Source: Pseudomonadota bacterium
GTDB lineage: Bacteria > Pseudomonadota > Alphaproteobacteria > Caulobacterales > Hyphomonadaceae
Length of the DNA: 64,000 bases
Direction: 5' to 3'
NCBI GenBank assembly: GCA_041166025.1
Contig: JBEAMJ010000040.1
Location: 2,421-66,420 of the forward strand
Shown here: positions 54,093 through 60,317 of the stretch, in pieces
Layout of the letters: every line of letters begins with the position of its first letter
Position numbering within the stretch: the first letter of the stretch is position 1
Made by a program: the position numbers and the translations under genes
Notes under the pieces: generated by a model
What the model saw: the letters and a program-made list of their open reading frames with translations, nothing else
Told to the model about the DNA's origin: nothing
Database searches by the model: none

Positions 54093-54494
54093 TCAGGGCT
54101 TTGCGTTGCTCATCCGCACGATCACCTCAACAGTCCGAATCTTCGCGCCTGCCGGCGCAGCGGGCAGGCCCTCGACCCGGATTGAGTCTCCGGGGATGTC
54201 ATGCAGGGCGCCGTTCTCTTCAAAGAAGAGGTGGTGGTGATCGCTGACATTGGTGTCGAAATAGGTGCGGTCCGTGTCAAGCGTGATGCGCTTCATTAGG
54301 CCCGCAGCGACGAACTGGTTGAGCGTATTGTACACCGTGGCAAGAGAAACGCGCACACCTGCCTTGCGCGCCATGGCCGCCACATCATCGGCCGTGACGT
54401 GCCGGTCCATCCCGTCGAACAGAAGAGCGCCGATCGCGATCCGCTTCGGGGTCGCGCGCAGGCCGGCTGTTTGGAGTCGCGTTTCTGCATTCAT
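54093..54494 (-). CDS. irr: Fur-family iron response regulator Irr
   Basis: 133 aa. Fur wHTH (TPKRIAIGALLF...SLATVYNTLNQF). HHH motif (SDHHHLFFE) and absence of the C-terminal CxxC pairs, as in rhizobial Irr. Confidence 0.8.
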   Translation of the reverse strand: MNAETRLQTAGLRATPKRIAIGALLFDGMDRHVTADDVAAMARKAGVRVSLATVYNTLNQFVAAGLMKRITLDTDRTYFDTNVSDHHHLFFEENGALHDIPGDSIRVEGLPAAPAGAKIRTVEVIVRMSNAKP

Positions 54495-55883: not shown

Positions 55884-55891
55884 CCGCCGCT

Positions 55892-56257
55892 TCAGCGCCG
55901 AATCGGGATATCGGCGCCGACAGGTTCAAGCTCCGGCTCCAGGCCAACCTGATAGAACGGTCGAACGTTTCGCTTGGCGGCACGTTCAATCGCCATGCTG
56001 GACAGCTGCCCAGCAAGTGCGATGAATTCCCGCACGTTCTGGCCGGGGACAAAGTCGCGCGAAAGCGCGATGCTTGGCTCTGTTCCTCCCGGCTCCGCCC
56101 CTTCGGGTTCATGGAAGCACAGGCACTCAGATTACCGAATCTCCTAACCGGCGCTCGTTGCGCGGTTCAGAGACTGCACCAGCGACCGTGCTGGCAAGCA
56201 AAGACTTCCGCTGTTGATGAGCGCGCCAAGTTCCTTTGCATGTGTCAGCAGGCTCAT
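55892..56257 (-). pseudogene. decayed ORF: 122 in-frame codons interrupted by TAG and TAA
   Basis: ATG at 56257 preceded by GGGAGA. In-frame TAG (56144..56146) and TAA (56132..56134). The 80 codons after them still look coding (…DFVPGQNVREFIALAGQLSSMAIERAAKRNVRPFYQVGLEPELEPVGADIPIRR) but have no start codon. Confidence 0.4.
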
Positions 56258-56276
56258 TGGCAGGTCTCCCGGCCGC

Positions 56277-56675
56277 CTACCTCAACGCATCCACCACAGC
56301 ATTCACCAGCGCGTCCTTGCGGCGCTCGAACTCCGGCAGGTCCCTGTAGGGCACCATCATCGGATGCGTCTTCTTCTTCGCGTCCTTCACCCGCCCGAAT
56401 TTCCAGCCATCGGCCTTCTTCTGTGCAAGCCACTGATCGTGCTGGGCTGAAGCCGACGCCTTGGGATTGGCGATGCGCCAGGCGACGGAAGCAGCGGATG
56501 ACTGCTTCATCCATTTCGGCGCGCGCGACCAGGGCGGAGCCGGGGCCTGCCCATTGGCCTTCTGCCACGCGCGCATCGCCTCGTGTATCACCTGCGCGAT
56601 CCGTTCGTTTGCTTTTGTATCGGTCGTCGAGACTTTCGTCTTCATCGCCTGCAAAGATCCCCGCCAGTATTTCAT
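56277..56675 (-). CDS. small RyR (ryanodine-receptor repeat) domain protein
   Basis: 122-132 aa (alternative start M11 at 56645). HDQWLAQKKADGWKFGRVKDAKKKTHPMMVPYRDLPEFERRKDALVNAV matches the bacterial RyR-domain pattern (H..W...GW.yG...k.hp.lvpy.eLpe..k.kD). Confidence 0.7.
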   Translation of the reverse strand: MKYWRGSLQAMKTKVSTTDTKANERIAQVIHEAMRAWQKANGQAPAPPWSRAPKWMKQSSAASVAWRIANPKASASAQHDQWLAQKKADGWKFGRVKDAKKKTHPMMVPYRDLPEFERRKDALVNAVVDALR

Positions 56676-56794
56676 CGCTCAACGATAGTATTGCTTTGGT
56701 AGCAAGCGAATTCTTGGCACAGTAGTCTTTGCAGAAGTCGCAGTTTATCCGTAACTTCAGTCGCCCTCATGCGGGGGACACGGGGAATTCGCGT

Positions 56795-58663
56795 ATGGCC
56801 GACGCTCATGCCGAGGTGAATGCACGCCCTGTTGGCGGTCGCGGGCAGGTTTTCCTGCGGGCATGGTGGGCGCTGGCTGTGCTGTCCGGCCTTGCTGCAC
56901 TCGTACTTGCCGGCATGGGGTGGTTTCTGGAATTCGGTTCCCCCAAAGACGCGTCCGACGTCCTCGACATCGCCATTCGAACGATCAAAGTGCTCCTGCT
57001 TTCGGACATCTATTACGACCCCGTTACGAATCCCGACGCGGGAATCCTGCTTGAGTACGCACGCGCCCTCGGCGTCGTCGCATCTCTGCTCGTTGGCCTC
57101 CGGCTCCTTGCGCTCGCGATCGGCTCTCGCATGTCCGATGTTCTCTACGCGCTGTTCCTCAACCGCCATCATATCATCATCGGCTCGGGCGCCGCCGCGC
57201 AGGAATACGCATCCAATCACAATCGCATTTTCAAGGGCCGGGCGATCCATCTTGCGGATGCGCGCCTGCCGACGGCTCACCGGCTAGCGACCTGGCAGCG
57301 CCGCGGCCAGCTGCACAACCAACTGCGCCATGCCAAGGCGCGCTCCGCCCGCCGCATCGTGGTGGACGAGGGGGACGACGCCGATACCTGGCAGACGGCG
57401 CAGCTGGCGGCCCGGGCCTGTCCCAAGGCGGACGTCCTCGCCCACATCGCCGATCCCTGGATCCGCGATCGTCTAAGCCGCGACCGGTCCAGCGATCAGC
57501 GGCCCACTCCACGCCTCACGCCCTTCTCCTATGCCGGCGGCGTGGCGCGGCAGGTCATGCTGGCCCATCCGCCTTACCTGTTGACGCAGGCGCTCGGCGC
57601 ATCGACGCCGCATATCCTCATTGTCGGCTTTGGCCAGGTTGGCGAGTCCATCGCCCGCGAGTTCATCGTTACGTCCGTGATCCCCGGCGACCAGAAGCTG
57701 ATGGTCACTGTCGTGGACCCGTCGACCGCGTCGATCGAGCCCGATTTCCGGGGCCGCCACGAGGAGCTGGTCAAGCATGTCGATTTTGACTTCATCGCAG
57801 GCGACTTTCGGCTCGCCGACACCCGGCCTGACGGCTTGATCGACCGCGTGACAAAGCGGACTGCCAAGGCCCCGATCAGCGCCGTCTATGTTGCGATCGA
57901 TCTCGAGCACCAGCCGCTAGGCCTGGCATTCGCCATCCGAGCGTTGGCGCTGCGCCGGGGGCTCTTCCTCGCGCCGATCTTCGTGTGCGCACAGCACGGC
58001 GCCGGCTTGCCACCGGTCCGCCATGGCGTCGGGCTCGTCGGTGGGCCAGCAGACGTGCAGGAGGAGCGCGAGAAGCAGGCTGTCGCCGAAGGCAAGCTCT
58101 GTAACCTGCGCGTCGTTTCTTTTGGCTCGTGGCCCGCAGCGTTCGACGGCGCTGGCATGCTTGAGCATCCCTACGACTCACAGGCGCGGCGCTATCATGA
58201 GGAGTATTCGCGTCAGTTCGCCAACCACGAGCGCCACAGCGCCACCATCGTTACAAGCACGATCAAGTCGTGGGACGAACTGCCCGACCAGCTACGAATC
58301 TCCAACCGGCGCGCTGCGGCGCACATGCGGACGAAGGCATTCGTGATGGGCTACGATCTTGGTCGCTGGCTCGCTGCCGAGCCCGGCTATCGCCATTGCC
58401 ACGAGCTTCCGCCCGCCGCCGGCGTGTTCCCGACGAGTGAAGAACCGGACATGCTGATGGCCAAGCTGGAGCACCAGCGCTGGATGCTGGACCGCTTCCT
58501 CGATGGCTGGCGGCCCGGCGGCCGCAGCGACTACTACCGGACACGCAAAACACTGGTCCCCTTCGAACAGCTTGGGGCAGACGAGGTGGCCAAGGACAAT
58601 GCGGTGGTGGAGACAACGCGCGCGCTTATGCGGGAGGCGGCCGCGAAGAAGCGTAAATCGTGA
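56795..58663 (+). CDS. membrane protein: 2 TM, two Rossmann (TrkA-N-like) domains and a C-terminal RyR domain
   Basis: ATG at 56795 (the track ORF starts at an upstream TTG). TM helices AWWALAVLSGLAALVLAGMGWFL and ALGVVASLLVGLRLLALAI. Dinucleotide motifs IIIGSGAAAQ and ILIVGFGQVGESIA. RyR halves ...WDELPDQLRISNRRAAAHMRTK and LEHQRWMLDRFLDGWRPGG...KTLVPFEQLGADEVAKDN. Confidence 0.7.
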   Translation: MADAHAEVNARPVGGRGQVFLRAWWALAVLSGLAALVLAGMGWFLEFGSPKDASDVLDIAIRTIKVLLLSDIYYDPVTNPDAGILLEYARALGVVASLLVGLRLLALAIGSRMSDVLYALFLNRHHIIIGSGAAAQEYASNHNRIFKGRAIHLADARLPTAHRLATWQRRGQLHNQLRHAKARSARRIVVDEGDDADTWQTAQLAARACPKADVLAHIADPWIRDRLSRDRSSDQRPTPRLTPFSYAGGVARQVMLAHPPYLLTQALGASTPHILIVGFGQVGESIAREFIVTSVIPGDQKLMVTVVDPSTASIEPDFRGRHEELVKHVDFDFIAGDFRLADTRPDGLIDRVTKRTAKAPISAVYVAIDLEHQPLGLAFAIRALALRRGLFLAPIFVCAQHGAGLPPVRHGVGLVGGPADVQEEREKQAVAEGKLCNLRVVSFGSWPAAFDGAGMLEHPYDSQARRYHEEYSRQFANHERHSATIVTSTIKSWDELPDQLRISNRRAAAHMRTKAFVMGYDLGRWLAAEPGYRHCHELPPAAGVFPTSEEPDMLMAKLEHQRWMLDRFLDGWRPGGRSDYYRTRKTLVPFEQLGADEVAKDNAVVETTRALMREAAAKKRKS

Positions 58664-58916: not shown

Positions 58917-58933
58917 ATGGTTCCTCGAACCAT
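58917..58933. promoter_or_regulatory. 17-bp perfect palindrome (candidate TetR operator)
   Basis: ATGGTTC-CTC-GAACCAT, 15 nt upstream of the 58901 start, within the divergent region shared with the tandem-TetR gene. Confidence 0.4.
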
Positions 58934-58961
58934 GCAGCAAGGCTCAGGCCAACAAGCTGAC

Positions 58962-58993
58962 TTTTTCGTTAATCCCGAGTTCATCACGAAAAA
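58962..58993. promoter_or_regulatory. AT-rich inverted repeat (candidate operator/promoter element)
   Basis: TTTTTCGT-N16-ACGAAAAA, about 50 nt upstream of the TetR-gene ATG. It is the most AT-rich stretch of this intergenic region. Confidence 0.35.
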
Positions 58994-59042
58994 TCACGGC
59001 CGCCAGCGGATTGCCGCGCCGCACAATCCGGGCTTCTGTTGC

Positions 59043-60317
59043 ATGAATCAGACTTCGCGTGTCACGGGAAGCGGCAGCGCCTTGAGCCAGCAAGCCCAGG
59101 ATGGGACAGCAAAGCCGGACGCTAACCCGGTCGGCCACCGATTCGATCAGCGCCGTGCCGACCTAGTTGCTGGTGCAATTCCGATCCTCAACAGCAAAGG
59201 GTTCAAGGGGATGCGGCTGACTGCGGTCGCCGAAGCGATTGGGCTGCGGGCGACCGGCGTCACCTATTATTTCCCACGCAAGGAAGATCTGGCGGTGGCG
59301 TGTCTGGAGACTGGCTTCGACATCTTCCACAGGATGCTGGACCAAGCTGAAGTCGGCAAAAATGCTGCCGAACGGCTTACCCGCCTGATCTCCGTGTTCA
59401 TTGAGCGCGACGCCGCTGTGCGCAGAAGGGAGGCGCAACCGCTTGCATCCTTCGCTGCGATCCGCGCGCTCGAAGGCGAACAGCGTCAACGTGTGGCCGA
59501 AGGGTACAAACACGTGTTTCGCCGTGTACAAAATCTCCTCAAGTCCTCGGAGTTAACTCACCTTGATGCTCCTGAGCGTAACCTACGCACGATCATCCTT
59601 CTGGAGCAGCTTTTCTGGACCAGCGGATGGCTGGACGGGTACGACCTCGATCTTTTTCCGCGCTTCGCCGCGAGGATGAGTGACATCGTTGTTGGCGGGC
59701 TTGCACCTCTGGGGACACAGGACGGGACGGCCACGATCGACCTCGATGCGGCGGTCGAGACGCCGAACGAGAGCTTCCTGGTCGCTGCCACACGTGAGAT
59801 CAACGCGCGTAGCTATCGCGGCGCATCGGTTGATCGCATTGCGGCAGGTCTCAACCGCACCAAGGGCGCATTCTACCACTACAACAAGGCCAAGGACGAT
59901 CTTGTCGCCGCGTGTTTCCGCCGCTCGTTCGATCTCGCCTGCGAGGCCCAGCGCAGGGCGCTTGCATCACATGGACCCGAACGTGATCGGTTGGCAGCCG
60001 CCGTTGCCGGGCTTGTCCGCTTCCAGCTCGGGCCACGCGGGCCGATGCTGTGTGCGGCCGTCATGTCCTCGATGCCCTCGGAGCATCAGGCCGAGATCAT
60101 AGCGCAGTCCAACACGATCAGCCGCCAATTCGGCGCGATGGTCGCCGATGGTGTGGCCGACGGCTCGGTTCGCCGGGTCGATCCCGCCATCGCTGGCGCC
60201 TTGCTTCATGCAGCCATCAACGCCGCCGCCGAAGTACGCGAACTCAGCCTTGCAGCCGAGCCTGACTTGGTCGCGCGCTTCGTAGGTGCGCTGTTCGGCG
60301 GGCTGGCGTCCGCATGA
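59043..60317 (+). CDS. tandem-duplicated TetR/AcrR family regulator (two HTH plus ligand-domain modules in one chain)
   Basis: 424 aa from MNQTSRV. First TetR HTH MRLTAVAEAIGLRATGVTYYFPRKEDL, second ASVDRIAAGLNRTKGAFYHYNKAKDDL about 215 residues later. Confidence 0.75.
   Translation: MNQTSRVTGSGSALSQQAQDGTAKPDANPVGHRFDQRRADLVAGAIPILNSKGFKGMRLTAVAEAIGLRATGVTYYFPRKEDLAVACLETGFDIFHRMLDQAEVGKNAAERLTRLISVFIERDAAVRRREAQPLASFAAIRALEGEQRQRVAEGYKHVFRRVQNLLKSSELTHLDAPERNLRTIILLEQLFWTSGWLDGYDLDLFPRFAARMSDIVVGGLAPLGTQDGTATIDLDAAVETPNESFLVAATREINARSYRGASVDRIAAGLNRTKGAFYHYNKAKDDLVAACFRRSFDLACEAQRRALASHGPERDRLAAAVAGLVRFQLGPRGPMLCAAVMSSMPSEHQAEIIAQSNTISRQFGAMVADGVADGSVRRVDPAIAGALLHAAINAAAEVRELSLAAEPDLVARFVGALFGGLASA

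Follow-up and report, generated by a model that had tools for sequence, protein, structure and literature searches.

A 64,000-nucleotide stretch of genomic DNA from a Pseudomonadota bacterium of the family Hyphomonadaceae (GenBank assembly GCA_041166025.1, contig JBEAMJ010000040.1, positions 2,421 to 66,420; hereafter the window, numbered from its first nucleotide) contains two divergently transcribed genes, both encoding proteins with a ryanodine-receptor (RyR) domain. The large protein is a predicted pore-loop channel with tandem RCK domains and a C-terminal RyR domain, and the small protein is homologous over its full length to the phage proteins RyDEP (DyoEdafos) and RyR Tad. The evidence consists of the domain architecture, the conservation of ligand-contact residues, the tight linkage of the two genes, and the TIR-domain partners found beside distant members of the channel family. 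The reading that fits best, to which we give a probability of about 0.45, is that the large protein is a channel gated by an ADP-ribose (ADPR)-derived nucleotide, similar to a Thoeris effector, and that the small protein is a host-encoded sink for the same ligand.

Divergent genes and the small RyR protein

The two open reading frames (ORFs) occupy 56277..56675 (minus strand, 132 amino acids) and 56729..58663 (plus strand), in a window with an overall GC content of 64%. Because the orthologues of the small protein are mostly 122 amino acids long and those of the large protein 622–625, the probable starts are at 56645 (M11, the second methionine) and at the ATG at 56795, respectively. A TTG start at 56729 was rejected for the large gene, as homologue lengths favour 56795. 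The spacer is 119 nt long, or 149 nt with the small-gene start at 56645, and has a GC content of 51%, in accordance with the original prediction, made from the sequence alone, that the genes share an AT-rich region.

The small protein matches the Pfam RyR family with 46.3 bits (cut-off 27.4 bits), consistent with its earlier description as a stand-alone RyR repeat. Comparison with the PDB returned the RyR repeats of RyR1–3 (E 1e-16 to 1e-18) and 35tm_A, a 139-amino-acid RyR-domain protein (E 1.5e-11); the N-terminal half used separately as a PDB query gave no match. Among phage families, PHROG 5154, 11782 and 18865 were matched with E-values of 5e-35 to 6e-25, and homologues with 36–46% identity over most of the length were present in 295 phage records. 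Identity to gp68 of Pectobacterium phage vB_PatP_CB1 is 38% at 97% coverage. The protein aligns with the RyR domain of the channel at about 30–40% identity over about 50 amino acids. An origin of the small gene as a duplicate of the channel's C-terminus was rejected, since the small protein is much closer to the phage stand-alone proteins.

The statement in the original prediction that bacterial RyR domains lack an assigned function is outdated, as two preprints of 2026 showed that phage RyR proteins bind or hydrolyse 2'/3' cyclic ADPR (cADPR) (PMC13232231; bioRxiv 10.64898/2026.06.04.730250). RyDEP, from a mycobacteriophage, is a glycosidase that opens 2'/3'cADPR with key residues H75, W78, H100 and D117, and other phage RyDEP homologues are nanomolar sponges (PMC13232231). 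RyR Tad, which is gp68 of vB_PatP_CB1, binds 1''-3' gcADPR with a dissociation constant of 43 nM through the contacts H129/W132, K147/H154 and K170/D171 (bioRxiv 10.64898/2026.06.04.730250). Both are obligate dimers, formed via alpha1/alpha4 (PMC13232231; bioRxiv 10.64898/2026.06.04.730250).

In a joint alignment of gp68, the small protein and the channel C-terminus, the small protein has the identical residue at each of the six gp68 contact positions, giving the predicted ligand residues H79, W82, K97, H104, K120 and D121 (132-residue numbering), which are invariant in 15 orthologues. The key RyDEP residues have the same spacing. The small protein thus shares with the phage proteins its full length, the four-helix RyR fold and the H/W/K/H/K/D pocket. 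Because non-catalytic homologues keep the same residues, this pocket is compatible with a sponge as well as with a hydrolase. Unlike the phage genes, the small gene lies at a syntenic bacterial chromosomal locus and is paired with a membrane protein bearing the same domain.

Predicted pore and RCK domains of the large protein

The large protein scores just under the Pfam cut-offs for RyR (24.5 bits, E 3e-5) and TrkA_N (22.6 bits, cut-off 23.8 bits), and its more distant relatives exceed both. Most of its homologues carry a PF02026 annotation, and TrkA_N is annotated as well. The expectation of hidden Markov model hits for both proteins was therefore borne out for the small protein, while for the large protein only the relatives pass. 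Repeating a word-indexed protein search with two alignments (A1 and A2) recovered only the same close clade, and no plasmid homologue of the large protein was found.

A model of the large protein obtained with AlphaFold2 (AF2) from 31 homologues (predicted local distance difference test score (pLDDT) 87, predicted template-modelling score (pTM) 0.81) contains, in order, a first transmembrane helix (TM1, residues 16–47), a short helix (53–68), a loop (69–79), TM2 (80–120), two Rossmann domains and a C-terminal four-helix domain. In a Foldseek search of the PDB with the full model, the top match was GsuK (E 1e-9, including full-length chains), followed by TrkA, CASTOR, MthK, Slo1 and Bt-hRyR12, a Bacteroides/human chimera of the RyR Repeat12 domain. 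The GsuK and TrkA matches ranged from E 1e-9 to 1e-6. The two TM helices and the double Rossmann fold named in the original prediction are present in the model, a description that falls short of what the model indicates, namely a pore-loop channel whose two RCK domains stand in tandem and which most resembles GsuK, TrkA and MthK.

The membrane domain was also modelled alone (pLDDT 83). When this model was compared with the PDB by Foldseek, about 48 of the 50 highest-ranking matches were pore-loop channels: KcsA (TM-scores of 0.6–0.66, range 0.5–0.66; probabilities of 0.9–0.98), MthK, the NMDA-receptor pore, KvAP and SthK. Within the membrane module, conservation is highest in the loop that joins the short helix to TM2: in alignment A1, D71 of the sequence LSDIYYDP (residues 69–79) is invariant and S70 and Y73 are nearly so. 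Within TM2, G93 is nearly invariant and R103 invariant. The TVGYG selectivity filter of K+ channels is absent, its place being taken by LSDIYYDP in this clade and by [SG]-D-x-Y in relatives, and no match to Pfam Ion_trans_2 was found in the large protein. Residues 6–205 of a distant relative (P0373) gave a tblastn alignment to annotated K+ channel proteins, including Escherichia coli Kch. The structural models thus point to a KcsA/GsuK-like pore with a non-canonical filter that is not of the K+ type.

An RCK/TrkA_N domain directly follows TM2, and hhalign placed residues 121–248 of alignment A1 on RCK residues 114–236 of MthK (E 7e-5). The order TM1, pore helix, loop, TM2 and RCK is shared with GsuK, MthK and Kch, and the presence of two RCK domains per chain with GsuK; unlike these channels, the large protein has LSDIYYD instead of TVGYG and carries a C-terminal RyR domain. 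Eukaryotic ryanodine receptors are likewise pore-loop cation channels with a cytoplasmic RyR repeat and the same ligand-contact residues. The large protein differs from them in size (622 amino acids and two TM helices, against about 5000 amino acids and six TM helices) and in having RCK domains instead of SPRY, RIH and MIR domains; the match is confined to the RyR-repeat domain, and the protein is not an orthologue.

The RyR domain of the channel

The C-terminal unit that the original prediction assigned to the RyR family was confirmed by the Pfam E-value, the four-helix fold of the AF2 model and the alignment with gp68. The domain matches PDB entry 6uhi (E 1e-4; Foldseek TMt 0.51), and aligns helix by helix with gp68, the N-terminal helix pair included, over the same helices that make up the phage RyDEP and RyR Tad proteins. 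About 40 amino acids are inserted between helices 2 and 3. The predicted ligand residues are H560, W563, R578, R584/K585, K600 and D601, so that the H, W, R, R/K, K and D of the channel pocket are kept or conservatively replaced relative to gp68. H560, W563 and D601 are invariant in alignment A1, and K600 nearly so. More distant RyR channels have a histidine at the position of R584, and an H-W-H-D set is invariant or nearly so among them. The description of the large protein as a nucleotide-sensing membrane protein agrees with this architecture, the membrane part being of the channel type, and the suggestion of a channel-regulator pair comes close to the model favoured here.

Conserved linkage in Hyphomonadaceae

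Orthologous loci were collected from one genome per species, giving 38 loci (L001–L038). Those with family-level names belong to Hyphomonadaceae or Caulobacterales, including Hirschia and Hyphomonas, and several metagenome bins carry broader or different labels. In 35 of the 37 informative loci, the small gene is found upstream of the channel gene in the opposite orientation, with one copy frameshifted and another cut by a contig end; it is absent from L011, in which the channel gene is inverted, and from L030. The arrangement of the window is found in 21 loci. In a further 14–15, a two-gene cassette separates the small from the large RyR gene and has the orientation of the small gene. Its first protein (about 600 amino acids) has an unassigned N-terminal part followed by Glyco_hydro_108 (GH108) and PG_binding_3 domains, and its second (about 980 amino acids) combines TPR-S with two trypsin-like protease domains. 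The patchy spread of the cassette across the clade suggests that it is ancestral and was lost repeatedly.

In 34 of 35 informative loci, including loci with differing flanks, the channel gene is immediately followed by a third gene, which encodes a 74-amino-acid protein. This protein is far more conserved than the channel, and the sole domain signal is a weak match to PF21627 (BTH_I2711-like, E 7e-4 to 8e-3).

In most loci the flanking genes (Fur-like, CoA-transferase, double TetR and a likely TonB-dependent receptor) are in synteny, indicating vertical inheritance of the locus. In the Hirschia group (L031–L036) both flanks differ, with genes for DUF3299 and an ABC ATPase, and the trio is kept, which argues that the three genes are linked beyond background synteny. 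Retention of the pair (35/37) also exceeds that of the flanks (22–29 of 39 sequences, namely the 38 loci and the window). By this comparative evidence the locus appears to be a vertically inherited three-gene module of Hyphomonadaceae, and the proposal that the two RyR genes form a functional pair gains support from a linkage that survives changes of the flanks.

Distant RyR channels and their TIR partners

An exhaustive profile search revealed a large superfamily, with 747 cluster representatives at E<=1e-30, many of which share the full-length layout. For a scan of loci, the diversity among 41 aligned distant relatives proved too great; a metagenome scan with a distant subfamily of 11 sequences yielded 56 loci. 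Counts were made on the 26 loci in which the channel is full-length and the flanks extend to 2 kb or more. None of the 26 contains a stand-alone small RyR gene, a 74-amino-acid gene or a GH108 gene. Conservation of the gene neighbourhood, as anticipated for the small and large RyR genes, therefore holds among the orthologous loci, and the pairing is specific to one clade.

TIR genes (TIR_2/ThsB_TIR) scoring above the Pfam cut-off are present in six of the 26 distant loci, five of them independent, and in most of the six the TIR gene is the immediate neighbour of the channel gene and has the same orientation. TIR genes are rare, and a rough estimate puts five independent adjacencies within 284 kb of flanking sequence far beyond chance. 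The sets of TIR and RyR-channel genes look like undescribed two-gene systems of the Thoeris kind. Thoeris systems occur in about 8% of genomes (bioRxiv 10.64898/2025.12.03.692087). The likeness lies in the two-gene operon and in its logic, a membrane effector with a predicted cytoplasmic pocket for an ADPR-derived signal. Unlike Thoeris systems with a small ThsB, the TIR partners of the distant channels are large TIR-WD40 or TIR-TPR (tetratricopeptide repeat) proteins; the loci are listed in Table 1.

Other distant relatives occur in related settings. On the Arcobacter plasmid CP146529 the system is split into a TrkA_N protein, a separate 166-amino-acid RyR protein and a DUF4062-TPR protein, and adjoins a type I restriction-modification system, an integrase and recombinases; DUF4062 we take to be TIR-like. 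On a Sinorhizobium plasmid, the neighbour of a channel relative is an NB-ARC/TPR STAND protein. A distant channel of 920 amino acids (P0349) is fused at its C-terminus to Glyco_hydro_108 and PG_binding_3, domains that also occur in the cassette of the orthologous loci, and this fusion hints at a functional link between the RyR channel and the GH108 gene of the cassette.

Further variation was seen among the distant proteins. P0305 (1298 amino acids) combines in a single chain an N-terminal region of the channel type (TM and TrkA_N) with five RyR domains behind it. The channels P0319, P0322, P0334, P0338 and P0343 are extended at the C-terminus by some 130–250 amino acids that have no Pfam match and whose sequence motifs hint at a SLOG-like nucleotide-binding domain. 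In another subfamily, a protein of 669–704 amino acids with a weak SLATT_3 match (E 2e-3) is encoded directly upstream of the channel (L057:5923-7932, L058:4917-7031 and L060:3865-5979).

The RyR channel of the TIR operons has no model in PADLOC 2023. A recent survey of Thoeris systems describes a type X with an 'ion channel' effector (ThsK) and an undefined signal, and names no RyR or TrkA domain in its text or tables (bioRxiv 10.64898/2025.12.03.692087). Homologues of the type X TIR protein on plasmids and viral contigs had only Macro-domain or short TM-protein neighbours. The preprints on phage RyR proteins mention neither bacterial RyR channels nor host-encoded partners (PMC13232231; bioRxiv 10.64898/2026.06.04.730250), and a full-text literature search for RyR and TIR domains in bacteria returned nothing further.

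Proposed mechanism and its alternatives

TIR enzymes make cADPR isomers. Because such isomers are bound by RyR domains, and because RyR channels recur beside TIR genes, the channels may act as effectors gated by an ADPR-derived signal. In the proposed mechanism, the large protein would be a cation channel, probably tetrameric, with a ring of tandem RCK domains controlling the pore. Its RyR domain would bind an ADPR-derived nucleotide, possibly a cADPR isomer from TIR enzymes, and binding would shift the state of the RCK ring and open the pore. The resulting ion flux and membrane depolarisation would lead to growth arrest or abortive infection. The small protein would bind, and possibly hydrolyse, the same ligand, and as a host-encoded signal sink it could set the threshold of activation or end the response. 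The 74-amino-acid protein may take part in the same process. The module would then be a variant that combines RCK-gated channels with Thoeris-like signalling, by a mechanism that is plausible but unproven.

Several observations weigh against this proposal. The RyR domain of the channel has, in this subfamily, an arginine where a phosphate-binding histidine is expected. The pore-loop assignment rests on a predicted monomer structure, and the Foldseek E-values of the membrane domain (0.2–2) are singly not significant, the evidence being the uniformity of the matches. With phmmer only, and hence at low sensitivity, no TIR gene or other gene for signal generation was detected, either in the window or within 8 kb in the 38 orthologous loci, a difference from Thoeris systems. 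The locus itself gave no match to a PADLOC model. It is syntenic, normal in composition and without signs of a tRNA or mobile element, all of which is atypical for defence systems. Among the neighbours scanned with Pfam, the window has a CoA-transferase and a TetR regulator, and the orthologous locus L001 has kynureninase and beta-lactamase-like genes; no phage genes were present among the scanned neighbours, and the metabolic or regulatory, syntenic flanks do not form a defence island. In addition, a purely metabolic ligand is possible because Repeat12 domains bind ATP/ADP and RCK domains bind NAD/ADP.

These points lead to an alternative in which the module serves housekeeping ion homeostasis, with ATP/ADP or NAD(H) gating the large protein through its RCK and RyR domains, the small protein acting as a nucleotide-binding accessory, and no link to immunity. 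NAD+/ADP and Ca2+ gate GsuK, the closest structural match, and the chromosomal position of the module, beside the CoA-transferase, TetR and Fur-like genes (the last named from its sequence only), is conserved across the whole bacterial family. Normal composition and the lack of a TIR gene nearby are also as expected for such a function, and the RyR3 Repeat12 domain binds adenine nucleotides (PMC13232231). However, the filter is not of the K+ type, the nearest relatives of the small protein are phage anti-Thoeris proteins, distant family members lie in TIR operons or defence-island settings, and the TPR-S/protease and GH108 cassette is inserted into the module in 14–15 orthologous loci. We consider a housekeeping function less likely than the proposal, though a serious rival to it.

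Somewhat less probable still, but also a serious rival, is the reading that the small protein is an auxiliary subunit, pairing back to back with the RyR domain of the channel and locking or priming the gating ring without competing for ligand. Helices 1 and 4 form the homodimer interface of RyDEP and RyR Tad, both proteins of the module share the four-helix layout with its N-terminal helix pair, and the linkage of their genes is strict. The invariance of its ligand residues suggests, however, that the small protein binds a ligand rather than acting only as a scaffold. The subunit and sink models do not exclude each other.

Coincidental proximity, with the small gene a domesticated phage anti-defence gene that has its own role and is kept by inherited synteny, is very improbable: the small protein is indeed nearer to the phage stand-alone RyR proteins (36–46% over the full length) than to the channel domain, and many flanking genes are syntenic too, but the pair and the 74-amino-acid gene are kept where both flanks differ, pair retention exceeds flank retention, and in loci with the inserted cassette the small gene remains part of the operon that faces the channel gene.

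The proposed ADPR-gated channel with its sink bears on two long-standing questions, a possible direct action of cADPR on ryanodine receptors and the purpose of the RyR Repeat12 domain. If the proposal is true, direct gating could be tested in liposomes with a bacterial channel of 622 amino acids that has the same domain and pocket and whose relatives have a TIR partner in the operon. A RyDEP homologue on the chromosome, paired with a receptor for the same ligand, would also be the first candidate for a host-encoded remover of Thoeris-type signals, a kind of protein for which no description was found in the literature searched, and such a sink would parallel the ring nucleases of type III CRISPR systems. 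The finding further suggests where the phage RyR sponges originated, or where they ended up, and the TIR and RyR-channel operons are directly clonable candidates for new immune systems. A broader version, which we regard as rather speculative and less probable than the proposal itself, is that the module represents a minimal bacterial 'ryanodine-receptor logic', a pore-loop cation channel that a cADPR isomer of the TIR type gates directly via a Repeat12-like domain, with a host-encoded RyDEP-type protein as off-switch or threshold setter. A prokaryotic immune channel module would then be the common source of the cADPR-RyR axis of animals and of the phage sponges directed against Thoeris, and RyR channels would form a new class of Thoeris-like effectors, possibly including type X.

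Other features of the locus

Table 1 Features of the module in the window, and of related loci (L001–L038, orthologous loci; higher L numbers, distant loci)
Feature	Position	Strand	Remarks
Small RyR-domain protein, RyDEP / RyR Tad homologue	56277..56675	-	Pfam RyR PF02026, 46.3 bits
Divergent intergenic region	56676..56794	.	119 nt, or 149 nt counted from 56645; GC 51%
Large protein: predicted pore-loop channel, tandem RCK and RyR domain	56795..58663	+	622 amino acids; 111 homologues of 600-640 amino acids
Membrane module, residues 16-120	56840..57154	+	TM1, pore-helix-like helix, loop, TM2; alignment A1
RCK/TrkA_N-type Rossmann domain 1, residues 125-270	57167..57604	+	Glycine motif IIIGSGAAA; TrkA_N 22.6 bits; Foldseek GsuK, TrkA
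RCK-type Rossmann domain 2, residues 273-445	57611..58129	+	ILIVGFGQVGESIA; AF2 secondary structure; Foldseek tandem-RCK GsuK, TrkA, CASTOR
C-terminal four-helix RyR (Repeat12 / RyR Tad-like) domain, residues 455-622	58157..58660	+	Pfam RyR E 3e-5
Third conserved gene, 74 amino acids	58674..58898	-	MTAYEQLARRYC...RRVA; convergent with the channel gene
Tandem TetR regulator	58917-60317	+	466 amino acids, two TetR_N/TetR_C units; syntenic with the module in most loci
Pseudogene	55889..56263	-	Two in-frame stops; blastn/tblastx match to L013 only
Cassette between small and large RyR genes	L004:3306-7998	-	Also in L005, L007-L009, L012, L016, L020, L022-L026, L029, L030; window without cassette
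TIR-WD40 genes	L051:5164-7977; L052:548-3070 (=L055:5485-8007); L056:9781-13821		In or beside distant channel operons
TIR-TPR gene	L083:4408-6729		In or beside a distant channel operon
TIR with another C-terminal part	L048:6127-7701		In or beside a distant channel operon
Split system on Arcobacter plasmid CP146529	L098:3970-7693		TrkA_N protein, separate 166-amino-acid RyR protein, DUF4062-TPR protein

The GC contents of the two genes are 0.61 and 0.65, and their GC contents at third codon positions (GC3) are 0.79 and 0.78, compared with a GC3 of 0.69–0.78 in neighbouring genes; the values of both genes lie within, or marginally above, the range of the neighbours. One 1-kb bin falls to a GC content of 0.60, owing to the spacer and the pseudogene only. 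A compositional island was therefore rejected, and with it the claim that the locus is lower in GC than its surroundings. The original prediction had built on that claim to propose an accessory, possibly conflict-related module; the compositional part of the argument fails for a locus of normal composition, syntenic and vertically inherited, and a role in conflict is suggested indirectly by the TIR partners of the distant channels and by the optional cassette with its TPR-S/protease and GH108 genes.

The decayed ORF noted earlier beside the locus was confirmed as the pseudogene in Table 1. Its only intact homologue, of 121 amino acids, is at L013:6990-7352, it has no Pfam match, and it probably lies outside the module. 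The Fur-like ORF mentioned above is at 54093-54494. Scans of the locus with PADLOC, NCBIfam, Rfam and for tRNAs gave nothing useful.

The divergent spacer presumably holds the promoters of both RyR genes. A simple sigma-70 scan of it found no promoter, and Rfam gave no match. Alignment of the intergenic regions of 18 loci revealed a conserved block at 56700-56727, TAGCAAGCGAATTCTTGGCACAGTAGTC, which in the window and L001–L038 follows the pattern TAGCA(A/C)GCGAATTCTT..CAC(A/T)GTAG. A TTGC...GC(A/T)TAGCG-like pair precedes the channel gene in relatives. The block and the pair may represent promoters or an operator, and the double-TetR protein encoded beyond the 74-amino-acid gene could regulate the module.

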